Assembly: GCA_018654605.1 (NCBI GenBank)
Contig: JABILG010000019.1
Span: 88,742 to 152,741, forward strand
DNA: 64,000 nt
Source: a bacterium
GTDB lineage: Bacteria > Desulfobacterota_D > UBA1144
Reading direction: 5' to 3'
Shown: piece by piece, positions 4,184 through 58,238 of the stretch
Position numbering within the stretch: the stretch's first letter is position 1
Layout of the letters: every line of letters begins with the position of its first letter
The notes under the pieces: generated by a model
What the model was told of the DNA's origin: nothing
The model's input: only the letters and a program-made list of their open reading frames with translations
The model's database searches: none
Made by a program: the position numbers and the translations under genes

Positions 4184-4780
4184 ATGCTTAATTCACCAGT
4201 TCTTGTATTGAATAATTTTTTTTTTCCTGTTGACACAACAAGCGTTAAAAGGGCTTTTTTAATGCTCTACATAGGAGCGGCAAAAGCTGTGGATATGAAC
4301 TATGAGACATTTGATTTTGATACATGGAGTGAAATATCTATTTTAAAGAAGTCGGAATCAATTAGGACAGTTTCGAAAGTAATAAGGATACCTAGAGTTA
4401 TTATAGTCTTAAGATATGACAAGGTTCCAAATAAAGAGGTTAAATTTAATCGCTATAACATATTTAGGAGAGATAGGTCAGAGTGCCAGTATTGTAGAAA
4501 GCCGTTCCCAAGGAATGAGCTAACTATTGACCATGTCCATCCTAAATCATTGGGTGGAAAAACAATATGGGAAAATGTTGTCTGTTGTTGTATCGCGTGC
4601 AATAGGAATAAAGGTAGTAATATTCTAAGTTCCACTAATATGAGCTTGGCTGTTAAACCAAGCAAACCTTCATGGGAGTTATTATCAAATCTCTATATGC
4701 AGACAATTAAATTTGATGAATGGAAACCTTTTTTAAGTTCTATTGAGACATCATATTGGAACGTTGAACTGGAAGAATAA
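4184..4780 (+). CDS. HNH endonuclease family protein (stand-alone)
   Basis: CQYCRKPF...IDHVHPKSLGG...WENVVCCCIACNRNKG, a HNH/McrA-type zinc-finger nuclease motif; 198 aa. Confidence 0.75.
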   Translation: MLNSPVLVLNNFFFPVDTTSVKRAFLMLYIGAAKAVDMNYETFDFDTWSEISILKKSESIRTVSKVIRIPRVIIVLRYDKVPNKEVKFNRYNIFRRDRSECQYCRKPFPRNELTIDHVHPKSLGGKTIWENVVCCCIACNRNKGSNILSSTNMSLAVKPSKPSWELLSNLYMQTIKFDEWKPFLSSIETSYWNVELEE

Positions 4781-5475: not shown

Positions 5476-8100
5476 ATGAAATCATCTGATATAAGAAAGA
5501 AGTTTTTGGATTTTTTTAATGATAAAAGTCATGGCTTAGTTGCAAGTTCTGGTCTAATTCCTAAGAATGATCCAACTTTATTATTTACTAATGCTGGCAT
5601 GGTTCAATTTAAAAATGTTTTCTTGGGTTTAGAGAAGTTTAAACATGCTCGGGCTGCATCTTGTCAAAAATCCCTAAGGGCAGGCGGAAAGCATAATGAT
5701 TTAGAGAATGTGGGAAGAACTAGTAGGCACCATACTTTTTTTGAAATGCTGGGAAATTTTTCATTTGGAGACTATTTTAAAGAAGACGCAATATCTTTTG
5801 CTTGGGAGTTTCTAACTAAAGAACTAAAGATAGATAAGAACAGGCTGTATATAACTGTCCACAATGGAGACAATGAGGCTAGAGAGATTTGGCTTAACTC
5901 AATAAAGATCAACAAAGATAGAATATATAAATTAGGTGATAAGGATAATTTCTGGTCTATGGGCGACACAGGACCATGTGGACCCTGTTCTGAGATTATG
6001 TATGACATAGGAGAGGCAAATTCGAATTGCCTAAACCCGGAGAATTGTTCTGTTGAATGTGAGTGTGGAAGATTTCTTGAAATATGGAATCTAGTTTTTA
6101 TGCAATTTAATAGAGGTGAGGATGGACAGCTTACACCTTTACCAAGGCCAAGCATCGATACTGGCATGGGCTTAGAAAGACTAGCATCAGTTCTGCAAGA
6201 TGTTAAAAGTAATTATGATACCGACCTATTTGAATATTTGACTAATTATGTTGCTACTTTCTTGGGGACAGAGTATGGGAAAGACAACGAAACAGATATA
6301 TCAATTCGAGTTTTATCCGATCATGCAAGAGCTGTGACTTTCTTAATCTCAGATGGTGTCATTCCTTCTAGCGAAGGTAGAGGATATGTAGCTAGAAGAA
6401 TACTAAGAAGAGCCGTACGTCACAATAAGAAGTTGGGAATTTCAGATCCTTTCTTACATAACCTTGTCGGTTTAGTTGTTGAGGAGATGAAGAGTTTTTA
6501 TCCGGAGTTGGGAAGTCAAAAGGATAACATTATTTCAATCGTCATAAACGAAGAAAAGAAGTTCTTATCAACCATAGATAGGGGATTTGACCAGCTTAAG
6601 GAAGCTATGAGTATGTCTTCAAGAACAAAGGTTCTCTCAGGGAAGGATGTATTTAAGCTTTATGACACCTATGGTTTTCCAGTAGATTTAATTGAAGACA
6701 TCGTAAGTGAAACAGACTATGTATTGGATATGAAAGCATACGAAGAAGAGATGCTTAATCAAAAGAATTCGTCAAAGAAAGCTTCGAAATTTAAGAATTT
6801 AGTGGGAGAGGCAATTGATTTAACAAAGATTATCAATCTGGATAATATAACAAAATTTGTTGGATATAATAGTCTTGATTTAGAGTCTAAAATTTTAGCA
6901 ATAATTAAAGATGACGAAATTGTTAGCTCTGCCTTTGAAAAAGAAAGAGTAGGGGTCGTATTAAAGTCTTCACCGTTCTATGCAGAATCTGGTGGTCAAA
7001 TAGGTGATAAAGGAGTTATTGAAACATCCTCATCCATAATTGATGTATTTGATACACAGAAAACAAAAGAAGGGTTCTTTATTCATAGTGGGATAGTAAA
7101 GAGAGGTGAAGTTAGGAATGGTGATAAAGCTAATGGTAGAGTTGATAAAATCTTCAGAGACCGAATATCTGAGCATCATTCTGCCACTCATATACTTCAT
7201 TCTTCTCTAAGAGAAATACTTGGTACCCATATTAGGCAAGCAGGCTCATTGGTAAAGAGCGATAGATTAAGATTTGATTTTAGTCATTTTTCAAATATTG
7301 ATAATGACACCCTCAAAGAAATCGAGAATTTATCAAATGAAAGAATCAGAATGAATAATGAAATTGTGATTCAAGAAAATGTTGAGTACAAAAAAGCTAT
7401 TAAAAATGGGGCAACCGCTTTTTTTGAAGATAAGTATGGTGACTTTGTTAGAGTGGTTAGAATAGGAGATTTTAGTATGGAGCTTTGTGGTGGGACACAT
7501 ATAAATAGTTCTGGTCAAATAGGTTCCCTATATATTTCATCTGAATCATCTATATCGTCTGGTATTAGGAGAATTGAGGCACATGTTGGAGAATCAGGTT
7601 TTAAGTATATAAGTAATATCAAGGATTTTTTAACAACCTCTTCTTCTTTGCTTAATTCGTCAATTGAGAAAGTACCTAATAGCATAGAAAGAATACAGAA
7701 AGAGAACGACGCTCTAAGATTAAAGGTTTCCTCGTTTGAGAAAAAAGCAACCAAGAGCCTAGCGGACCAAGTCTTGTCAGATTGTGAATCCTTTGATGAT
7801 ATCAAGATAGTTTCTTATTTAGGTAAAGATATGACTTCATCTCAATTGAAGAACCTTTGGGACGACTTAAAGAAAAATAAAAATGTTATTGCCCTCTTAG
7901 CTTCAAACAATAGAGAAAGTTCGATAATAATTTGTGCTGCTAGTAAAGGTATAAAGAATTTCGATTGTAAGGTTTTTCTAAATGAAATTGCTACTAATAT
8001 TAATGGAAAAGGTGGTGGCAAGAGCAACCTAGCACAATTTGGTTGTGACACCATTAATAGTCTTGATGAGATTGTAGTGCTTATTAAAAATCAGCTGTAA
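5476..8100 (+). CDS. alaS: alanine--tRNA ligase
   Basis: 874 aa; FLDFF..KSHGLVASS..NDPTLLFTNAGMVQFK class II AlaRS N-terminus, editing domain HxxxH motifs. Confidence 0.95.
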   Translation: MKSSDIRKKFLDFFNDKSHGLVASSGLIPKNDPTLLFTNAGMVQFKNVFLGLEKFKHARAASCQKSLRAGGKHNDLENVGRTSRHHTFFEMLGNFSFGDYFKEDAISFAWEFLTKELKIDKNRLYITVHNGDNEAREIWLNSIKINKDRIYKLGDKDNFWSMGDTGPCGPCSEIMYDIGEANSNCLNPENCSVECECGRFLEIWNLVFMQFNRGEDGQLTPLPRPSIDTGMGLERLASVLQDVKSNYDTDLFEYLTNYVATFLGTEYGKDNETDISIRVLSDHARAVTFLISDGVIPSSEGRGYVARRILRRAVRHNKKLGISDPFLHNLVGLVVEEMKSFYPELGSQKDNIISIVINEEKKFLSTIDRGFDQLKEAMSMSSRTKVLSGKDVFKLYDTYGFPVDLIEDIVSETDYVLDMKAYEEEMLNQKNSSKKASKFKNLVGEAIDLTKIINLDNITKFVGYNSLDLESKILAIIKDDEIVSSAFEKERVGVVLKSSPFYAESGGQIGDKGVIETSSSIIDVFDTQKTKEGFFIHSGIVKRGEVRNGDKANGRVDKIFRDRISEHHSATHILHSSLREILGTHIRQAGSLVKSDRLRFDFSHFSNIDNDTLKEIENLSNERIRMNNEIVIQENVEYKKAIKNGATAFFEDKYGDFVRVVRIGDFSMELCGGTHINSSGQIGSLYISSESSISSGIRRIEAHVGESGFKYISNIKDFLTTSSSLLNSSIEKVPNSIERIQKENDALRLKVSSFEKKATKSLADQVLSDCESFDDIKIVSYLGKDMTSSQLKNLWDDLKKNKNVIALLASNNRESSIIICAASKGIKNFDCKVFLNEIATNINGKGGGKSNLAQFGCDTINSLDEIVVLIKNQL

Positions 8101-19831: not shown

Positions 19832-21024
19832 TAATATAATGACACCACTAAGTTAGTGCCAGATTGAATAGAGCCATTTAAAGAAGGTTCTGATAAATAG
19901 TCACCAGCAAAATATATTTGATTAGAATATTCATAAAAACATTTATCTCTGAAGTTAAATAAATCCTTTGTTGAAGGAAGTGCATTAACAACTTTGATAT
20001 CTTTTAAGAAATTGATTTCATCCATATTCTTAAAATAACTTAAAATTTCATTTTCTATAGTGTCTTTGTCGCTATTAATTGATAAAGAGGAGGCGGAAAG
20101 AATTAGTTGATCATTGTCCAGTCTGTTGAATGACATATTGGCAATATTCTTTGATTCAGGGAATAAGTATATTAAGCAATCATCAATATCCTTAATTTTA
20201 ACTTTAAAGTAGAAGCACCTAGTACTGTTATATTCTAGATTTTTAAAAAATCCTTTATTTATTTTTTGGTCAATGGCACCCTCGATTTGAGGGTCAGTAC
20301 ATAATAGTTTTTTAAAATAAAAAGTTTCCCCACTATTTGTTGTTAAATAATTACTATAAATTTGCTCCACTTTGACATTTTGTTTGATTTTTCTATAATC
20401 AAGCTTTTCTGCAATTTTTTGGATTATCTGGTTTATTCCATATTGGGGTATGCAGACCTGACTAGTTGCAAAGAGATTGAATATGAAAAAAAAATACCTT
20501 AGAGGAACATTTAGTTTTTTATCTAAAAATACTCCTTGAAAAAAAGATATAAAGAAATCATTGATAAACGACTCTGTGAATCCAAAATCTTTAAGAAATT
20601 TTAACACCTTAATGTTTTGATTTTCATATCTATTGCTTAGCATGAAAAGCTTAATTAATAGATATTTATCTTTTATAGTAAAGCCTGGGAAAGTATTATT
20701 GAAAAATATAGCCTGAAAGTTTTTTAGAGGATTTAATACCTTGAATATCTTATCTTTTTTCTTTATAGCAAAGCCAGATTTAAACTTTTTATATGGAATA
20801 TTATTAATTTCCGGAAATAATTTTAGTGTCGGATAATCTCTTAGTAGAATTTGAAAGCCTCTATCTAAATTATATTCAGATAGACTTATTGTTGAAATTT
20901 TTCCACCCATAGTAATGTTTTTATCTAAGATTAAATAACTAATGTTCTTGGCAGATAAAAGTTTAGCTATAGTAAGTCCTGTTATACCGCTTCCAATTAT
21001 AATATTATCATATGAGTTGTTCAT
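19831..21024 (-). CDS. FAD/NAD(P)-binding amine-oxidase-type oxidoreductase
   Basis: N-terminal IIIGSGITGLTIAKLL...LDKN..GGK dinucleotide-binding fold; 397 aa. Confidence 0.65.
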   Translation of the reverse strand: MNNSYDNIIIGSGITGLTIAKLLSAKNISYLILDKNITMGGKISTISLSEYNLDRGFQILLRDYPTLKLFPEINNIPYKKFKSGFAIKKKDKIFKVLNPLKNFQAIFFNNTFPGFTIKDKYLLIKLFMLSNRYENQNIKVLKFLKDFGFTESFINDFFISFFQGVFLDKKLNVPLRYFFFIFNLFATSQVCIPQYGINQIIQKIAEKLDYRKIKQNVKVEQIYSNYLTTNSGETFYFKKLLCTDPQIEGAIDQKINKGFFKNLEYNSTRCFYFKVKIKDIDDCLIYLFPESKNIANMSFNRLDNDQLILSASSLSINSDKDTIENEILSYFKNMDEINFLKDIKVVNALPSTKDLFNFRDKCFYEYSNQIYFAGDYLSEPSLNGSIQSGTNLVVSLY

Positions 21025-21731
21025 TCTGATGGCGGCAATATCCAGTTTCCAATTTTACCCGCATTACCATGGACCCCTTTAAATATGATTGATAAACTAA
21101 ACGAAGCAAAGAAAATAATAATTCTGGAAATATTAGGCAGTCCAAAATTTTTTTCAATTTTTGAATTTAATCTTGATTGGGTTGAAGGTATTGGATAAAA
21201 AATTGATTCAACTGCTTTACTTCTATTGTAATTTTTGTCTTGATTTTCTTCATAAATATTCAAATTTTCTTTAAATAAATTTAAATCTTTCTTTTTCATA
21301 ATATTGTCTATATTATAAATACCTCTTTGGCTTAATGTAGGCAAAATTAATATATATACAAATCCAATTATATTGAATATTAGTGAAACTTTAATAGTAA
21401 AAGCTACAGCAGAGATATTAGTATTTGAATAGTATGAATAAAGAATTATGAATAAAATAGTATTAATAACGATGCTAAATATGTAAGACCTAATATGATT
21501 TTTTTTCTTGATGTTTAACTTAAACCTCTCTAAATGGAATTTATAGTTTTTGAAGTTTTGCCTGGTCCAATGTTTAGGCACCACAATTATAGTGTCTTTA
21601 AAGGTTCTTAAGATATTCATTGTCATATATGAGGGTGCTTCTGGAATAATGATTAATGAAAATCCATCTATTTTATCGGACTTACCTTTCATGAATGTTT
21701 TTATTGATAATTCCTGAAGTGGTAACAACAT
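21021..21731 (-). CDS. hypothetical membrane protein
   Basis: Central hydrophobic helices; ATGA overlap with downstream oxidoreductase gene. Confidence 0.4.
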   Translation of the reverse strand: MLLPLQELSIKTFMKGKSDKIDGFSLIIIPEAPSYMTMNILRTFKDTIIVVPKHWTRQNFKNYKFHLERFKLNIKKKNHIRSYIFSIVINTILFIILYSYYSNTNISAVAFTIKVSLIFNIIGFVYILILPTLSQRGIYNIDNIMKKKDLNLFKENLNIYEENQDKNYNRSKAVESIFYPIPSTQSRLNSKIEKNFGLPNISRIIIFFASFSLSIIFKGVHGNAGKIGNWILPPSE

Positions 21732-39056: not shown

Positions 39057-40550
39057 ATGAAAAAATTAAACAATATTTTTATCCTCTTTTCTTTATCTTT
39101 TGCACTGTTTTTAGCTATGCCACTTTTATATGGGAATGCTCAAAATGAGGAAAACGAGGCGGAATTAAGAGCAAATATTAATAAGGTTAACTTATCTAAG
39201 ATTCAGGTCACTGATTTTAGATGGAAACATAAAGCAAAAAGCACAATAGGTGTATTCGAGTATATTGAGGTTGCTAATAATTCAAATCTTACTTATAAGA
39301 ATCTTAAATTAGAGATAATCATTTATAGTCAAAATGGATCACCCTATAAGTTTCAGATTTCTCTTCCTGGTGATATAGGTCCAAATAGCAAAAAGAGGTT
39401 TAGCTCAGTTTCGTCTATAATGTTGAGCTTCTCACCAGAAAAGACTTTAATAAATATTGAGTCTGCAAAAGTTGCTTACGACAAAGACACAATTAGGATA
39501 AAAGCAAAGAATGCTATTAAAGTTAACGAGTTCAAATATATTCCTGATAGTATTGCAACTAAAACTATTCAAGTAAAGAAGCTTTCATATACTAACAATA
39601 GTAAGAATTTTTTTAAAGATATTATTTTCTCTGTGAATTTTTTAGACCAAAAAGGCAAGCTTCTTAAAGCCATAACTTTTAAAGATCGATTGGTGATAGG
39701 CCCTGGAGAAACAAAAATTTCTAAAGAATTCCAGATTCCTGGTCTTAACCTAAATTATTTTTCAGATATAAATTTGACAGTATATGACGGAACATTAATT
39801 GGAGGCTCCGAGTATTTAAGCAAGGGAGGCGATTCCAGGCTCGCGAGCAAGGTTCAGTCTACTAGTTTTGATAGCCCATATCCCAAAGAAGATTTGATAA
39901 TAGAAAGTTTTGATATATTAAATAAAAATAAAAATACTATGGGGTTGATGAACATTAACTTATCAAACAACAGTAGGTACGAATATAAGGATATTGCTCT
40001 TATTGTTGGTTTTGTGAACTCGTCAGGGAGCACGACTACATCAAAGAAAATTAAAATTAAAGATACAATTAATCCTTATTCATCAAGGCTCTTTTCTAGT
40101 GTAAATTTTGGAATTATTGACAATAACTTTGATACAATTTCTCTTTCTATTTCATCAGCTGAAATGATTAGTTCTGTGCAAGAGATTAATAGAGATGATT
40201 CAATAAAAAAGGAATCAAAATTAAAAGAAAATGTAGATGTTCCTGAAGGAAATGACAACTTGGTTGCTTTTGATTCTAATGATGAGCTTTTGATTCTAAA
40301 TGTTGACATAGCCAGGCTTGCTTCTGTAAAGGTTCTTAATATATCTTCACATGTAATATTCGATCCAATCTTTAATTTAATTTTATTAAATAAGGACAAT
40401 GAAGTTGTTAAGACTTTATTATTGAAGGGATCTGGCAAGATTAATCCAAAAGAAGAACGAACCTATAGGTCAATTAATATTAATAATATTAATTCTTATA
40501 ATTACGATCAATATAGGGTGGAGTTTGTTTCGGGGCAAAAAGTAAAATAA
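39057..40550 (+). CDS. secreted protein with signal peptide and ~4 tandem copies of a ~100-aa domain
   Basis: MKKLNNIFILFSLSFALFLAMPLLYGNA signal peptide; recurring [YF]K[ND][IL].L.I......G + I.PG motifs at ~aa 75, 185, 300, 410. Confidence 0.5.
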   Translation: MKKLNNIFILFSLSFALFLAMPLLYGNAQNEENEAELRANINKVNLSKIQVTDFRWKHKAKSTIGVFEYIEVANNSNLTYKNLKLEIIIYSQNGSPYKFQISLPGDIGPNSKKRFSSVSSIMLSFSPEKTLINIESAKVAYDKDTIRIKAKNAIKVNEFKYIPDSIATKTIQVKKLSYTNNSKNFFKDIIFSVNFLDQKGKLLKAITFKDRLVIGPGETKISKEFQIPGLNLNYFSDINLTVYDGTLIGGSEYLSKGGDSRLASKVQSTSFDSPYPKEDLIIESFDILNKNKNTMGLMNINLSNNSRYEYKDIALIVGFVNSSGSTTTSKKIKIKDTINPYSSRLFSSVNFGIIDNNFDTISLSISSAEMISSVQEINRDDSIKKESKLKENVDVPEGNDNLVAFDSNDELLILNVDIARLASVKVLNISSHVIFDPIFNLILLNKDNEVVKTLLLKGSGKINPKEERTYRSININNINSYNYDQYRVEFVSGQKVK

Positions 40551-41649: not shown

Positions 41650-42375
41650 ATGTTATCTAAAAGAAACAAAAAATATCTTTTTTTAACTGCACTTGGGTCC
41701 ATCTTGATATTTGTTTTCTTATTCTTAAACTTAAATTTCTACTTCTCTAATCTTCTAATATCCAAGCTTTCTTATAAAAGTGATTACCTATCAAATAATT
41801 CTATTTTAAAAGAAAGGATTTCTCTTTTAGAAGCAAGAATAAAGTTGCAAGAGGCTATTGTTGATGAGAATCTATCACTAAAGGAAAATCTGAATTATAA
41901 TTTACCAAAATCTTTATCACTCTTAAATACAGAGCTTATAATTATTTCACCTTTTACTTTTACTTCATCAGGGATTATCAATAAAGGTTCATTGGATAGA
42001 GTTAAAAAAGGTTCTTTAGTAATCAGCCCTAAAGGATTAGTGGGAAAAGTAGCAGAAGTTAACAAACAGTTTTCCAAAGTACTTTTTACCTTTAATCCCA
42101 ATTTTGCAGTAATGGTATACGTAGGAGAGAGTAAGATACCTGGCATATTAAAAGGTAATGGGATATCTTCTCGAATTAAATACATAACTACCGATCAAGA
42201 AGTTGTTGTAGGCGATAATGTCTTTATTGCAACTAATACCATTCAAGAGTACCCAGGAATAAGAATTGGGGAGATTTCCGGTGTAGTTGATTACGAAGGA
42301 TTCTTAAATCTCTCGATAAAGGATTTAATTAATCCTAGGAATGCAAAGTTTGTCACGGTCATAATCAATGATTAG
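41650..42375 (+). CDS. mreC: rod-shape-determining protein MreC
   Basis: N-terminal TM, coiled coil, beta-rich C-domain; gene order mreB-mreC-mreD. Confidence 0.7.
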   Translation: MLSKRNKKYLFLTALGSILIFVFLFLNLNFYFSNLLISKLSYKSDYLSNNSILKERISLLEARIKLQEAIVDENLSLKENLNYNLPKSLSLLNTELIIISPFTFTSSGIINKGSLDRVKKGSLVISPKGLVGKVAEVNKQFSKVLFTFNPNFAVMVYVGESKIPGILKGNGISSRIKYITTDQEVVVGDNVFIATNTIQEYPGIRIGEISGVVDYEGFLNLSIKDLINPRNAKFVTVIIND

Positions 42376-42874
42376 AAAAAATATTTTTATATTAATTTTA
42401 GGAGGACTTGCTCTTTTATTGCTTCCTGTATACCCCAAATCAAGCACGCTTGACTTTGGAGGGCACGTAGATGCTTCATTAGTCTACATCTTTATACTAT
42501 TAATTACTGGTATCTCTAAAATAAAATTATTGATTGGCTTAATAGTCTTATTTTGTTACCTTGGTCTTTCTGATTCCTATGCTTATTTAGAATTAACTGC
42601 GAAAATCTTAACATGCTTCATCTTTATTACCTATATTCAGAAGTTTTTTTGGGAGAATTTAAGAAATGATTCAATCATGTTGTTAATATTCCTTCTACTA
42701 TTTTATTCAATAAGTTTTATTCTATATAGTGGAGTGTTTCAAGTTGGATTATCTGAATATGGAACATTTGTTGGAATCCCTATAATCTACAACTTTTTCA
42801 TTTCTATGATTTTATTGATTATAATTAAGTATACCTCATGGCCAAGAGCGAAAGATCAAACTTATCAATTCTAA
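42368..42874 (+). CDS. mreD: rod-shape-determining protein MreD
   Basis: 168-aa polytopic membrane protein in canonical position. Confidence 0.6.
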   Translation: MIRKNIFILILGGLALLLLPVYPKSSTLDFGGHVDASLVYIFILLITGISKIKLLIGLIVLFCYLGLSDSYAYLELTAKILTCFIFITYIQKFFWENLRNDSIMLLIFLLLFYSISFILYSGVFQVGLSEYGTFVGIPIIYNFFISMILLIIIKYTSWPRAKDQTYQF

Positions 42875-53457: not shown

Positions 53458-54553
53458 ATGATTGAATTTATACAAACCTTAAAATTGCTTACAAAGAAAA
53501 TTGAAGTTATACGAGGCTATCTTTGACCTTAAAAGCTTGGAAATTAAACTAAAAGATTTAATTTCTAAATCTGAAAAGAATGATTTTTGGTCGAATCAAC
53601 AAGCTGCTCAGCTAGTTTTAAAGGATATTTCACAAATTAATAAGAAATTAGATTTATTTAGATCTCTTGAGAATGATTTGAGAGAGTTAAAAGAAATTAG
53701 CGAATTATATAAAGATGAAGAAGTTGACGATTCTACAAGTAAGGAAATTGAAGAATCATTATTAGATTTAAAGAAATCAATTGAAGCTTTCGAGGTTAAA
53801 GTAATGCTTTCAGGTAGAGATGATAATAAGAATGCTATTCTATCAATTAATTCTGGTGCTGGTGGGACAGAGGCACAAGATTGGGCTAGCATGTTGTCCC
53901 GAATGTATTTTCGATATTCTGAAATTAATAGTTTTAAGGCTGAATTTCTAGATTTCTTAGATGGCGAAGAAGCTGGTATAAAAAATTGCTCAATTCTTAT
54001 TAAAGGAGAATTCGCTTATGGGTATCTTAAAAATGAAATTGGTGTTCATAGATTAGTAAGAATTTCACCATTTGATTCTAATAAAAGGAGACATACTTCG
54101 TTTGCATCTGTTTCTGTTTCACCAGAAGTTGAACTTGATATTGATGTTGAAATAGAAGATAAAGATTTAAAGATTGATACTTTCAGGGCAGCCGGTGCTG
54201 GAGGTCAGCATGTTAATAAAACAGATTCTGCAGTAAGGATAACTCATTTGCCTACTGGAATTGTAGTTGGATGTCAGAATCAAAGATCTCAGCATCAGAA
54301 TAAAAATGCGGCTATGAAGATTCTTTCATCAAAACTTTATGATTTAGAATTGGAGAAAATAAAAACCAAAGAGGAAAAGGTAAATTCTAAGAAAAAAGAA
54401 ATAGGGTGGGGAAGCCAAGTACGATCATACATTCTTCATCCTTATAGAATGGTTAAGGACCACCGAACTGATACAGAAATAGGAGATATAGATTCATTTT
54501 TAGATGGCAGCCTCCAAGACTTAATAGAGAAACTTCTTTCATCTGAAAAATAG
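53458..54553 (+). CDS. prfB: peptide chain release factor 2, expressed via programmed +1 frameshift (frame 0: 53458-53523, then +1 from 53525)
   Basis: Frame-0 leader MIEFIQTLKLLTKKIEVIRGYL ends at CTT TGA C; +1 frame continues DLKSLEIKLKDL...; SPF and GGQ motifs downstream. Confidence 0.9.
53512..53527 (+). promoter_or_regulatory. RF2 autoregulatory +1 frameshift site (SD-like GAGG, then UAU CUU UGA C)
   Basis: CGAGGCTATCTTTGAC resembles the E. coli prfB shift cassette AGGGGGUAUCUUUGAC. Confidence 0.85.
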
Positions 54554-54594: not shown

Positions 54595-55461
54595 ATGATT
54601 TTTGGTATTCTAGCAAAACCTAATCTTAATAATTTTCAAAAGGTTCAAGAAACTTTAGGAAAATTTCTTCGTAATAGAAATTCTAAAATTTTAATTGAGG
54701 AATCATTAAGACAGAAACCTGATTCTTCTTTTGAATACACTTCAAAAAAAGAGCTAATTAAAGAATCGGATGTACTAATTGTGATGGGTGGAGATGGAAC
54801 CTTGTTGCGTATAGCTGAAGATGCAGCAAAAAATAAAAAACCTGTCATAGGTATTAATCTAGGAAATCTTGGCTTTTTGACCGAGGCACCCATTAGCAAA
54901 TTGGAGAACTTGTTAGATGACTTTTTTGAAAATAACCTTGTTTTAGACACAAGAGAACTTCTACAGGCAAAAATAATCAAATCAAATAAATTGCTTTTCA
55001 AAACTAGCTTTCTGAACGATGTAGTTATAAATAAGGGGGCATTGGCAAAAATTATTAACCTTGATCTATTTATTGATAAATCTTTAGTATCTAATATGCG
55101 TGCCGATGGAATTATTCTTTCTTCACCTACGGGGTCAACTGCATACTCTATGTCTGCTGGAGGTCCTATTGTCACACCTTCCTTACCTTTAGTAATTGTA
55201 ACTCCAATTTGTCCTCATACTTTATCCAACAGGCCTCTCGTTATATCTAATAAATCTGTAATCAATGTTCGCATAGAGCCCTTGAATTCGCCTGTTTTTA
55301 CTACTTTTGATGGAAATCTCAGCATGGAAATGGAAGCAGGTGTTGAACTAGAGATTTCTAAGTCTCCACTTAAGTTGAAACTCTTAAGATCCAAAAAGAC
55401 AGAATATTTTAATGTCTTAAAGGATAAGTTGATGTGGAGTAAAAACTATGGAAGAAAATAA
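54595..55461 (+). CDS. nadK: NAD(+) kinase
   Basis: GGDGTLL, NLGFLTE, DGIILSSPTGSTAYSMSAGGPIV motifs. Confidence 0.85.
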   Translation: MIFGILAKPNLNNFQKVQETLGKFLRNRNSKILIEESLRQKPDSSFEYTSKKELIKESDVLIVMGGDGTLLRIAEDAAKNKKPVIGINLGNLGFLTEAPISKLENLLDDFFENNLVLDTRELLQAKIIKSNKLLFKTSFLNDVVINKGALAKIINLDLFIDKSLVSNMRADGIILSSPTGSTAYSMSAGGPIVTPSLPLVIVTPICPHTLSNRPLVISNKSVINVRIEPLNSPVFTTFDGNLSMEMEAGVELEISKSPLKLKLLRSKKTEYFNVLKDKLMWSKNYGRK

Positions 55462-55819
55462 AAGAGAAATGTTTCTCCACGATTGGGTTGTGGAGGAAAT
55501 TAAGGTCCAATATTATAAGGAATTTAATGAAATTAAAATAAATAAATTTGGTGTAGAAGATAATGAAATTGATGGATTGTTTCCGGATGTTATCTTTGGC
55601 AATTACGGTCAAATTATTATGTTGGGAGAGGTTGAAGTAGACTCAACTATTAATAGCGAATCAATCAAAAGATGGAAGATGATTCAGGATTTAGGCATCA
55701 GTCTTATTATTTTTGTACCCATAGTAAAATTAAAAATTGTTAGAGATATGTGTTGGGAGAATAAATTAATAGAGAGAGTTAAGGTTTCTTCTTTCTCGGT
55801 TGACATACCACTTAAGTAA
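55448..55819 (+). CDS. hypothetical protein, 123 aa (overlaps nadK by 14 nt)
   Basis: ORF only; D...GEVEVD arrangement faintly nuclease-like, not supportable. Confidence 0.3.
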   Translation: MEENKREMFLHDWVVEEIKVQYYKEFNEIKINKFGVEDNEIDGLFPDVIFGNYGQIIMLGEVEVDSTINSESIKRWKMIQDLGISLIIFVPIVKLKIVRDMCWENKLIERVKVSSFSVDIPLK

Positions 55820-56738
55820 AGCGTGGGTTTTCTATCTTGGAAATTCCGTTAATAAAATCCTTACCAGCGACCTGCCTTTGTCCGCTTTTCTGGATTTTAA
55901 TTATTTCTATATTCTTGTCTTTGCATCCCACTACCATTGATTTATCAATCTTTTTTATCTCACCCTGACTAATTTTTTCCGAGCTATGCTCTTTTATTTC
56001 GTATATTTTTACGATTTGCTTGTTCAAATGTGTGAATGCAATTGGCCATGGATTACAGCCTTTTATTAACTTGTCTATTTCCCTAAAACTTTTCCCCCAA
56101 TTAATTAAACCATCATCTTTTAACATTTTTGGTGCGACAGTAGCTTTGTTATTATTTTGTTTGGTTGATAAGAGTTTGGAGCCAGATTCGATACTTTTGA
56201 TTAATTTTATTATTTCACTTGCACCTAAATCTGCAAGCTTCATTGTTAATGTAGATGCTGTATCAATACCATCTATCTGTAATTTAAAACTAGATATTAT
56301 GTCACCAGTATCCATACCTGAATCCATCTTCATTAATGTTATTCCGGTTTCCGTGTCACCATTGATTATTGCTCTGTTTATTGGGGCCGCACCACGATAC
56401 TTAGGAAGCAAGGATGCATGAATATTGATACAACCTATAATAGGTATATCAAGAAATTCCTGTGGGAGTATTTTCCCATAAGCTGCAACACATATAATAT
56501 CAGGGTTAATTTCCCTAACAATTTTTAATAGTTCTTTATTGTTTTTTATTTTATCAGGTTGAATACAGTCTAAACCTTCTTGAATGCAGAAAGTTTTTAC
56601 TGGAGAAAAGATAATTTCTTTTTTTCTTCCTATTGGTTTATCAGGTTGTGTAATAACAAGAGCTACATTAAAGTTCTTATTTAAAGCAGTTAGGCTCTGA
56701 AGAGCAAAATCTGGAGTTCCCATAAAAATGATTTTCAT
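55812..56738 (-). CDS. fmt: methionyl-tRNA formyltransferase
   Basis: MKIIFMGTPDFA N-terminus, HASLLPKYRGAAPI motif. Confidence 0.9.
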   Translation of the reverse strand: MKIIFMGTPDFALQSLTALNKNFNVALVITQPDKPIGRKKEIIFSPVKTFCIQEGLDCIQPDKIKNNKELLKIVREINPDIICVAAYGKILPQEFLDIPIIGCINIHASLLPKYRGAAPINRAIINGDTETGITLMKMDSGMDTGDIISSFKLQIDGIDTASTLTMKLADLGASEIIKLIKSIESGSKLLSTKQNNNKATVAPKMLKDDGLINWGKSFREIDKLIKGCNPWPIAFTHLNKQIVKIYEIKEHSSEKISQGEIKKIDKSMVVGCKDKNIEIIKIQKSGQRQVAGKDFINGISKIENPRFT

Positions 56739-58238
56739 TTATTCAAACAAATCTAAGATGCTTTTAACATTCCTTCTCGCAAAAAATTTAATTTGATCAA
56801 CATAGGAAGTTTTCCTAAAATAAACTACGTTGTTTTCTTTAAATATTGTTATTCTTCTACCTATTTCAAATTCTCCCTCAAATAAGGCTCGGGCAAAAAC
56901 TCTTTTATATTTCACTGTATCAATTATTCCTAGTGTTAAAGGAGAGTCAAACCCTTCTGGTGTTACATAAAGGGTTGTATAGCTTGCAAGTCTTCCTTCT
57001 AGTTCCTCATCCTCGTTTATAAGTTCACTACTATCGGGGATTTTTGGAATTATTTCATGGATAACATCATGTGAACCAAGGGCTCTTCCTTTTGAAGAGG
57101 GAACTTTCTCAAGTATATTCACGAAGATATTGTTACCCATTCCCCCAATAGAATGGCATAAAGCAATGTTATTTTTTTCTACTTGTCTATTGCTGGAAAC
57201 CTCATTTCTCATTTGGTATACACAGTCTACAATCTGTGCTAACCCGGTAGCACCAACTGGGTGACCTCTTGACTTAAGACCCCCAGATGGATTAATAGGT
57301 AGTTTTCCATTAATTTTTGTCTCATCTTTTAAAATATGAATGCAAGATTCACCTTCATCAAAGAACCCCAGATCCTCGGTATTTATTGCTTCAAAACTAG
57401 TAAAGGCATCATGAACCTCAGCGAAATTGATATCCTTGGGCGATAGCGATGATGAAGCATATGCTTTTTTAGCAGCGAGTTTAGTCGCAGCAAAATGACT
57501 TAGAAATACCCTGTTCTTTAAGCTTACTGTATCTGTTGCTTGACCAGTCCCACTTACTCTTATATCTGTTTTTTCAGATGTTAATATTAAAGCCGCTGCA
57601 CCATCAGAAATCGGTGAGCAGTCATACATTTTTAAGGGATTTGAAATTACTTTACTATTGTTATAATCATCTTCAGAAATCTCTTTCTGAAAGTGGGCCA
57701 ATGGATTCAATGAACCATTATGATGGTTTTTAATCGCTATCGTCTTTAATAATTCATTTAGCAACTCTTTATTTATTTTATATTTAAGCTTATATGCCAT
57801 AGTTACCATTGCGGCTAAAGAAGGCATGCTAGCGCCCGATTGTCTTTCTTCTTCTTCGATAACTTTAGCTAAGATTTTTGTAACCTTTTGCGTCTCAAGC
57901 CCCGACATTTTTTCCGCGGCTACTAATAGTATATTACTATAAGCGCCAGACGCGATTAAGTTACATCCTAAGCTGAAGATTGCTGCACCTGAGGATGATG
58001 CCGTCTCAATTCTCATTGATGGAATTCCTTGAACATTTAGATAGTCGGCAACTAAAGAGGAAATATTAGAATTGCTACTGAATTCTTCAGGATTCATAGA
58101 TCCAATTAGTAGGCAATCTATTTTTTTTCTTGTTCTTTCGAGACACTTTTCACCAGCACTAGTAGTTAAATCTCTCAAGCTTGAATCAAACCTACCAAAT
58201 TTAGTCATAGAAACATTTTCTATAAAAACTTCTCGCAT
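56739..58238 (-). CDS. thiolase-fold (SCP-x/archaeal-type) protein with ~110-aa C-terminal extension; predicted nucleophile position reads Ser not Cys
   Basis: GHPVGATG and CHSIGGMGNN C-terminal thiolase motifs present; N-terminal RIETASSSGAAI where thiolases have ...ETACxSG... Confidence 0.6.
   Translation of the reverse strand: MREVFIENVSMTKFGRFDSSLRDLTTSAGEKCLERTRKKIDCLLIGSMNPEEFSSNSNISSLVADYLNVQGIPSMRIETASSSGAAIFSLGCNLIASGAYSNILLVAAEKMSGLETQKVTKILAKVIEEEERQSGASMPSLAAMVTMAYKLKYKINKELLNELLKTIAIKNHHNGSLNPLAHFQKEISEDDYNNSKVISNPLKMYDCSPISDGAAALILTSEKTDIRVSGTGQATDTVSLKNRVFLSHFAATKLAAKKAYASSSLSPKDINFAEVHDAFTSFEAINTEDLGFFDEGESCIHILKDETKINGKLPINPSGGLKSRGHPVGATGLAQIVDCVYQMRNEVSSNRQVEKNNIALCHSIGGMGNNIFVNILEKVPSSKGRALGSHDVIHEIIPKIPDSSELINEDEELEGRLASYTTLYVTPEGFDSPLTLGIIDTVKYKRVFARALFEGEFEIGRRITIFKENNVVYFRKTSYVDQIKFFARRNVKSILDLFE

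Follow-up and report, generated by a model that had tools for sequence, protein, structure and literature searches.

A thiolase-like protein with serine at the nucleophile position and a fused DUF35-type OB domain, from an uncharacterised family related to archaeal-type acetoacetyl-CoA thiolases

A thiolase-like protein without catalytic thiols

A stretch of 64,000 nucleotides from contig JABILG010000019.1 (assembly GCA_018654605.1, positions 88,742 to 152,741; Desulfobacterota_D, UBA1144), in the following called the window, carries at positions 56739..58238 of its minus strand a gene for a thiolase-like protein that lacks the nucleophilic cysteine and is fused to an oligonucleotide/oligosaccharide-binding (OB) domain of the DUF35 type. 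The best explanation overall, which we hold with about even confidence, is that this gene is a member of a broad, uncharacterised family derived from an archaeal-type gene pair of acetoacetyl-CoA thiolase (ACAT) and DUF35 protein, and that its product performs the non-covalent chemistry proposed below. The conclusions on the identity and architecture of the protein are held with high confidence, and the specific chemistry proposed below, which is read from conserved residues, is tentative. Most family members are automatically annotated as 'acetyl-CoA C-acetyltransferase', and this also applies to BAT71191.1 from Thermosulfidibacter takaii ABI70S6, the only carrier in culture that was identified. 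The label 'acetyl-CoA acetyltransferase' is almost certainly wrong for the protein studied here, and such misannotation can create a false capacity for acetoacetyl-CoA, polyhydroxybutyrate, butyrate or mevalonate formation in metagenome-based reconstructions. Cys-less thiolase-fold proteins associated with DUF35 are an already known kind; the Ser-bearing, OB-fused family adds a further case and a testable candidate for new chemistry.

The open reading frame (ORF) is real and encodes 499 amino acids; it and all its features lie on the minus strand. Its thiolase part consists of an N-terminal domain (residues 5-222, 57573..58226; PF00108, Thiolase_N, E 3.6e-20) and a C-terminal domain (residues 232-377, 57108..57545; PF22691, Thiolase_C_1, E 1.5e-37). 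A full-length AlphaFold2 (AF2) model computed from a 54-sequence alignment of the family reached a predicted local distance difference test score (pLDDT) of 88.2 and a predicted template modelling score (pTM) of 0.89. Foldseek matched this model to 6et9, 7yvy and 4yzo with TMt 0.89-0.93, which are the same homologs as those found by HMMER.

Archaeal ACATs are defined by the motifs CxS, HDxF and GHx (PMC12960953). In the query the first of these reads SxS, and Ser81 (codon TCA, 57996..57998) occupies the position of the acyl-accepting Cys in alignments to 7yvy, 6esq and 4yzo. The query segment RIETAS(81)SSG stands opposite KIEAACASG of the Pyrococcus furiosus protein 7yvy and RVEAACASG of the Methanothermococcus ACAT 6esq. 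The first-pass annotation of this DNA had placed a Ser at the nucleophile position, and the HMMER alignments to solved archaeal thiolases bear this out; a Cys in this column was not found. The replacement is a property of the family, with Ser at the nucleophile column in 119/119 aligned homologs. Among the fused-length genes in 87 fetched loci, 46 of 48 encode Ser81 and the other two Thr. Across genomes the residue is encoded by TCT, TCC, TCA, TCG and AGC, a set that includes a switch between the TCN and AGC codon classes. These five codons exclude a sequencing error, and their spread reads as synonymous turnover under purifying selection.

The catalytic His that had been recognised in GHPVGATG stands as well: this segment aligns with the GHP motif (residues 325-327, 57258..57266), and the conserved catalytic and oxyanion-hole residue His326 is present in 120/121 sequences. 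In the SCP2/archaeal thiolase class, the second Cys sits in HDCF (PMC12329534, PMC12960953). The corresponding HDxF motif is HDAF in the query (residues 276-279, 57402..57413) and in every homolog, so that Ala takes the place of the acid/base Cys of SCP2 thiolases; some Cys-bearing ACATs, such as 7yvy, have HDAF as well. As judged from these alignments, both thiols of the SCP2-type mechanism are absent. The acid/base role that the first-pass annotation gave to the Cys of CHSIGGMG (Cys361, 57156..57158) has to be withdrawn, because this residue is out of register and the second thiol of the class belongs to the HDCF loop. The archaeal ACATs of known structure have Thr or Ala at this position, and only 12/121 homologs have Cys there, the rest having A, T or L; Cys361 is not a conserved catalytic residue. 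It is also located four residues before the GG, and not two as in the classical CxGGG register.

When 119 sequences of the Ser clade were compared position by position with 69 representatives of the canonical, Cys-bearing ACATs, two sets of conserved residues emerged. The first set is shared with the canonical ACATs and retained at about 100%: E78, E109, M111, H172, N178, D206, C207, D212, H276, D277, F279, N316, G319/G320, K322, H326 and G365/G366. The second set does not vary within the Ser clade but differs from the canonical ACATs, and comprises N49/E51/E52 in the motif NPEEF (residues 49-53, 58080..58094), T79, S81, A107/G108, M138 (Phe in canonical ACATs), A142 (Phe or Tyr there), F282 (Ala there) and N370/N371. 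This pattern reads as the signature of a pocket that was remodelled but is still constrained, and it argues for an enzyme rather than a relic, because the known inert or scaffold relatives have lost the fingerprints that are kept here. MsTLP1 has Gly at the nucleophile position and its other thiolase fingerprints are described as not conserved (PMC3406046), and PhlA and MucA have lost the catalytic tetrad (PMC12960953). The family, with its conserved remodelled active site, has been kept even in a compact, low-GC marine genome.

The fused OB domain

The Pfam domains of the thiolase end at residue 377, and about 120 residues remain. The first-pass annotation had noted such an extension without Zn-ribbon cysteines, and indeed residues 379-499 contain no Cys and a CxxC motif occurs in 0/54 fused homologs. 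In the query, the Pfam match to OB_ChsH2_C/DUF35 is sub-threshold (residues 414-449, E 0.013); PF01796 is matched individually by 48/54 family members. A hidden Markov model (HMM) of the fused C-termini matches the small proteins encoded directly downstream of unfused relatives with E-values of 1e-8 to 6e-26, in the OB half only, and the extension profile reaches four PDB sequences, all of which are DUF35 proteins (6esq_E, 6ok1_B, 9myr_B and 3irb_A), at weak E-values of 0.03 to 1.5. In the AF2 model, residues 412-476 (56811..57005) form a domain of five beta-strands, and thus the OB fold for which the extension was to be checked is predicted, with the profile evidence identifying it as DUF35-type. 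The preceding linker (residues 379-411, 57006..57104) is modelled with low confidence (block-mean pLDDT 51-69). It replaces the Zn-ribbon segment of free-standing DUF35 proteins, which in their full two-domain form have a rubredoxin-like ribbon with Cys4 or Cys3His at the N-terminus, as the alignment shows CxxC...CxxC in the free DUF35 partners only and in none of the fused proteins. The extension thus corresponds to DUF35's OB half, minus the Zn ribbon.

The protein ends with an amphipathic helix (residues 479-498, 56745..56804), which is predicted in both models and has a hydrophobic moment of 0.55 versus a shuffle mean of 0.34. In most family members the tail is strongly basic and up to 75 residues long, with a family median net charge of +8; the tail of the query is short and has a net charge of +1. 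The terminal helix could be a membrane-binding or a protein-packing element.

Distribution and origin of the family

The best 120 database clusters (44-94% identity, ~500-550 amino acids) all have Ser81, HDAF and GHP, and the nearest genome to the window gene, 'MAG: bacterium isolate NAT510', encodes a protein of 94% identity. A scan of species-representative genomes yielded 80 loci. These stem from metagenome-assembled genomes (MAGs) labelled as Thermodesulfobacteriota/Deltaproteobacteria, Aquificota, Binatia, Methylomirabilota/Rokubacteria, Elusimicrobiota, Acidobacteriota, Deferribacterales, Verrucomicrobiota and Dehalococcoidia within the bacteria, and as Thermoplasmata and Methanobacteriota within the archaea. 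Of the 87 fetched loci examined in all, none (0/87) has Cys at the nucleophile column. The 48 fused-length genes nearly all encode ETASS[STA]G, and the 39 unfused genes (~375 amino acids) mostly encode ETATSSG, with Thr in the nucleophile column, some Ser, and a few Pro. In the sister clades with Thr (codons ACN) or Pro (codons CCN) at column 81, HDAF and GHP are kept, and the single Pro-variant sequence that was inspected, from a Thermoplasmatales archaeon (locus L046), also keeps NP[DE]EF. A separate DUF35 gene of roughly 70-150 codons follows the unfused gene in at least 21 loci, and most of these partners have the Zn ribbon.

An exhaustive search of 1.84 billion representatives retrieved 7033 relatives, of which the closest are all Cys-less; canonical ACATs with E[AS]ACASG and HDCF start at about 274 bits and below. 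In a rough neighbour-joining tree without support values, the Cys-less proteins with HDAF form a super-clade apart from the canonical ACATs. Unfused members lie inside the Ser clade, and for this reason the loss of Cys probably preceded the fusion. A likely course is that an ACAT/DUF35 gene pair came first, that the Cys was lost next, and that fusion accompanied by loss of the Zn ribbon followed. This evolutionary route bears on the question of what the DUF35 OB domain itself contributes.

Loss of the nucleophile has recurred in the ACAT/DUF35-type group. In addition to the super-clade with Ser, Thr or Pro, scattered representatives within the canonical clade have Asp, Asn, Gly or Ser in its place (for example EGADASG, EASNASG and EAGGASG), often together with an altered HDxF motif (HDSY, HDSS), and may represent further uncharacterised neofunctionalisations. 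One sequence, P0010, resembled a fusion of ribosome recycling factor and thiolase (locus L088, ENA NODE_1552, 6001-7362). It was rejected as most likely an assembly chimera: coverage is 3.5x, and the contig joins the prs-L25-pth block (window ~34.8-37 kb), with a truncated pth, to the thiolase-fmt block.

Comparison with characterised thiolase-fold systems

The closest characterised homologs are the archaeal ACATs (6esq/6et9 and P. furiosus 7yvy), with 32-35% identity and a Foldseek TMt of about 0.90. HDxF, GHx, the Asn316 loop, E109, the GG loop and an association with a DUF35 OB domain are common to both. Unlike these enzymes, the query has SxS instead of CxS, DUF35 in cis and without the Zn ribbon, and the fixed clade-specific residues. 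It also differs from the archaeal complex of thiolase, HMG-CoA synthase (HMGCS) and DUF35 in that neither an adjacent HMGCS gene nor a separate gene for a Zn-ribbon DUF35 protein was found in the window. The best PDB sequence match is ST0096 of Sulfolobus tokodaii (4yzo, E 1e-73), which is placed in the same Cys-less super-clade by its look-alike P0149. ST0096 likewise carries Ser in place of the nucleophile (NTSGSG) and lacks a Cys in its HDxF loop (HDMA), but it is an unfused protein of 373 amino acids, reads HDMA and not HDAF, and belongs to a different branch. It is uncharacterised and was named only as a structural neighbour (PMC6392133). No functional study of 4YZO or of 7YVY/PFC_04095 was found in the literature.

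The closest architecture is that of MsTLP1, the monomeric type 1 thiolase-like protein from Mycobacterium smegmatis (4egv), which has a thiolase-like domain with a fused C-terminal beta-barrel. However, identity is only 15-16%, and the query keeps Ser81, HDAF, GHP and the Asn316 loop where MsTLP1 has Gly in the nucleophile column (PMC3406046). The Friedel-Crafts acyltransferases PhlABC and MucABC are bacterial derivatives of the ACAT/HMGS/DUF35 system which took on chemistry other than that of thiolases (PMC12960953, PMC6392133), and PhlC and MucB are structural neighbours of the query according to Foldseek. PhlC and MucB keep the Cys and lose HDxF, whereas the query family loses the Cys and keeps HDxF. 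PhlABC further needs separate PhlA and PhlB subunits; none were found for the query family. Cys-less thiolase folds have repeatedly turned out to perform unexpected chemistry, as in the aldolases Ltp2 and Sal and the decarboxylase TbSLP, and in PhlABC and MucABC the pocket was rewired with the Cys kept.

Proposed chemistry and alternative explanations

No member has the nucleophilic Cys, and the ping-pong cycle of canonical thiolases via a thioester acyl-enzyme should therefore be impossible for the protein. The chemistry we prefer is a non-covalent reaction of a thioester enolate, such as the decarboxylation of CoA esters of the malonyl or methylmalonyl type, or a different C-C or C-H step at the alpha carbon. 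A CoA (pantetheine) thioester would still be bound in the thiolase tunnel, as suggested by the conservation of the SDGAAA region, of the motifs in the loop domain and of the residues that form the oxyanion hole. Its carbonyl would be polarised, and the enolate or oxyanion stabilised, by His276, Asn316 and His326. The hydroxyl of Ser81 would act as a hydrogen-bond or proton-relay group and not as an obligatory nucleophile. The fused OB domain would have a structural function in cis and shape the pocket, as DUF35 proteins do in trans in the complexes of ACAT/HMGCS, BbsAB, Ltp2, Sal and PhlABC. Sister clades that keep HDAF and GHP have Thr or Pro at column 81, which argues against a general need for a covalent nucleophile in the super-clade. 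A precedent comes from the work on Sal, which implies that TbSLP, an SCP2-thiolase-like protein without the Cys, is active as a malonyl-CoA decarboxylase (PMC12329534).

Several points weigh against this proposal. Without the Cys of HDCF, there is no obvious proton donor for the enolate. The strict conservation of Ser, which is never Ala, Gly or Thr in the 119 homologs, would fit a nucleophile as well as a hydrogen-bonding role, and the clades with Thr or Pro may differ in function. Binding of CoA would follow from conserved motifs only. Neither the clustering of neighbouring genes nor the inspection of distant contigs revealed a recurrent partner or pathway neighbour for the fused clade, the whole 64-kb window consists of housekeeping genes, and no functional study of the Ser-bearing, OB-fused family was found in the searchable literature.

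A broader and more doubtful view is that the Ser-clade protein with the fused OB domain is a true enzyme whose active site was rebuilt for thiol-free chemistry, whether through a Ser-O-acyl intermediate or a non-covalent enolate, which would catalyse a housekeeping-level step of acyl-CoA or lipid metabolism as a self-contained unit and would possibly be membrane-associated via its Zn-less OB domain and tail. If this were true, a whole sister family of the ACATs would catalyse a reaction that is absent from the metabolic map, and its carriers would belong to little-studied phyla (Thermodesulfobacteriota, Aquificota-like bacteria, MAGs labelled Nitrospinota/Tectomicrobia and a streamlined marine lineage).

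Alternatively, Ser81 itself could be the nucleophile. Activated by His326 and His276/Asp277, it would be acylated by an acyl-CoA, and the O-acyl enzyme would deliver the acyl group to an acceptor in an acyltransferase, thioesterase or slow Claisen reaction, similar to DpsC. DpsC is reportedly a KAS III-like priming ketosynthase with a Ser-His-Asp triad, in which Ser stands in place of the active-site Cys. It belongs to the beta-ketoacyl-ACP synthase III (KAS III) branch and has no DUF35, and the query grazes the corresponding PF08545 model at 24.5 bits. In line with a nucleophilic role, Ser81 is invariant in the fused clade despite about 43-94% identity and the use of five codons, His276, Asp277 and His326 are invariant too, and the polar residues N49/E51/E52 and N370/N371, which are newly invariant, could serve a new acceptor. 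Moreover, a Cys-to-Ser mutant of the Zoogloea thiolase is said to form the acetyl-O-enzyme still, at a much reduced rate. We nevertheless regard this mechanism as unlikely. Related clades in which the rest of the site is intact carry Thr or Pro instead, and Cys-to-Ser variants of related enzymes have been made for crystallography (PDB titles 3zbl, 9skm). An oxyester is also a poor acyl donor to carbon nucleophiles, and no acceptor-related neighbour genes were found. The crystallographic variants are, as we understand them, inactive controls.

Similarly unlikely is an inert pseudoenzyme, that is, an acyl-CoA-binding, regulatory or scaffold protein that may be membrane-associated through its C-terminal helix and may organise other enzymes as DUF35 proteins or PhlA and MucA do. 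The absence of both catalytic thiols and the conserved, amphipathic and basic terminal helix would agree with such a role, and DUF35 modules are known as scaffolds (PMC12329534, PMC6996347, bioRxiv 10.1101/2024.07.05.601840). However, HDxF, GHP, N316, E109 and the GG loop are kept at about 100% and extra residues have become fixed, whereas MsTLP1 and PhlA/MucA have lost theirs, and no partner gene recurs beside the fused form.

The first-pass annotation had suggested an aldolase-type or otherwise non-canonical enzyme. The second half of this suggestion stands, given the family-wide loss of the nucleophile and the conservation of the rest of the site, but a retro-aldolase that acts on 3-hydroxyacyl-CoA like Ltp2 and Sal, which cleave steroid side chains, is highly improbable. 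Ltp2 uses Tyr294 (YDHF) and Tyr344, and Sal uses Tyr302/Cys304 (YDCY) with Gln352 (PMC12329534). In the query, the column of the catalytic Tyr of YDxF/YDxY is occupied by His276, that of Sal Cys304 by A278, and that of Ltp2 Tyr344/Sal Gln352 by the retained His326, the last assignment being an approximate offset mapping from the 9myr_A match. The aldolases are distant in sequence (6ok1_A, E 2.6e-16; 9myr_A, E 1.2e-18; compared with 1e-73 for 4yzo). The score of the query against PRK07937 ('lipid-transfer protein'), which we take to be the Ltp2-type model, is 52 bits and thus far below the cutoff of 419. In Ltp2-ChsH2 and Sal-Shy, the DUF35 domain belongs to the hydratase and keeps its Zn finger, whereas here it is fused to the thiolase-like protein itself, and neither a MaoC hydratase nor steroid-catabolic genes were among the neighbours in any inspected locus.

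Least credible of all is that the database name is correct and the protein is a working acetyl-CoA C-acetyltransferase, perhaps with another thiol such as the invariant Cys207: the automated names and the strong overall similarity to archaeal ACATs would speak for it, but the Cys of CxS is absent in every member and the query reaches the cutoff of no thiolase model in NCBIfam (PRK06064, 366.6 versus 420 bits; ACAT equivalog NF053570, 303 versus 600). Cys207 was rejected as a substitute nucleophile, as it is equally conserved in canonical ACATs with the normal Cys (60/69) and so is not compensating.

Gene neighbourhoods

In the window, the thiolase-like gene forms a two-gene unit with fmt (methionyl-tRNA formyltransferase, 55812..56738, minus strand), which is identified by its ORF and by the Formyl_trans_N/C domains in syntenic loci. 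The thiolase-like gene comes first, and the ATG of fmt directly follows its TAA stop, so the zero spacing reported by the first-pass annotation is correct. The unit is divergent from htrA, with thiG-thiS-thiO past htrA, and nadK and prfB past fmt. Genes for HMG-CoA synthase, KAS III or acyl-CoA metabolism are not among the annotated ORFs of the 64-kb window. The adjacency to fmt was considered as a functional clue in view of the DUF35 translation factor Trf (PMC6996347) and rejected, as it occurs only in marine relatives of 67-94% identity; fmt is a neighbour only.

Neighbouring genes were clustered without bias in 84 loci, and four distant contigs were also inspected. Several large neighbour clusters were artefacts of antisense ORFs in high-GC loci and were discarded. 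No HMGCS-like neighbour cluster was recurrent in the 48 fused loci, and distant fused members have unrelated neighbourhoods. Synteny at the level of single lineages was observed. In one group of Thermodesulfobacteriota it comprises a metallopeptidase-like gene and a polysulfide-reductase-like cluster. An Aquificota-like lineage has the order dnaX-ybaB(-recR)-[gene]-yceD-plsX-fabH-fabK-fabD-fabG. Here the block dnaX-ybaB(-recR) precedes the fused gene in six loci; three of them (L005, 7001-15503; L014; L036, 6669-13100) also have yceD-plsX-fab downstream, and L013, L015 and L029 have the upstream block only. The fused gene is on the same strand as yceD and lies 56-123 nucleotides upstream of it in L036 and L014, and ~1 kb upstream in L005. 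This context is possibly linked to fatty-acid and phospholipid synthesis and is apparently confined to the one lineage.

Two contexts of unfused or variant forms resemble it in theme. In Rokubacteria/Methylomirabilota (L066, 7995-12498, and about 10 further loci), an operon-like unit contains a thiolase-like gene with Thr, a Zn-ribbon DUF35 gene, a family III CoA-transferase-like gene (420 amino acids) and a citramalate/isopropylmalate-synthase-like gene (~558 amino acids), the last two of which were annotated by eye from sequence motifs. In the Thermoplasmatales archaeon bin50 (L046, 4252-9835), the unfused Cys-less gene with Pro and its DUF35 partner are divergent from genes for acyl-CoA carboxylase subunits (carboxyltransferase, biotin carboxylase and biotin carboxyl carrier protein), which are followed by a glyoxalase/methylmalonyl-CoA-epimerase-like gene; these assignments were also made by eye. 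The archaeal, the Rokubacteria-type and the plsX-fab contexts share a thioester/lipid theme, which is in line with the proposed thioester chemistry, and none of them is independently replicated across phyla.

Further observations in the window

An ORF of 123 amino acids without a Pfam match (55448-55819, plus strand) separates nadK from the 3' end of fmt; it overlaps both genes by a few bases and is convergent with fmt. It is kept at the same position in the syntenic loci L001-L003, where it is called as a gene without a Pfam domain. The neighbouring prfB (53458-54553, plus strand) has the classic programmed +1 frameshift, which is itself well known. A short frame-0 ORF runs from the ATG at 53458 to CTT TGA C at 53521-53527, just after a stretch that contains AGG, and the +1 frame carries the main ORF onwards; in the mechanical ORF list the gene starts at TTG 53501.

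Elsewhere in the window, no Pfam match was obtained for an ORF of 497 amino acids (39057-40550, plus strand) or for one of 236 amino acids (21021-21731, minus strand). The latter is flanked by two amine-oxidase-like flavoprotein genes and is located in the part of the window with the lowest GC content (20-22 kb, GC 0.26). An ORF of 168 amino acids between mreC and the gene for PBP2 (42368-42874, plus strand) is presumably mreD, judged by its position. A stand-alone HNH endonuclease gene (HNH_5/HNH; 4184-4780, plus strand) is situated between an lnt-like gene and alaS.

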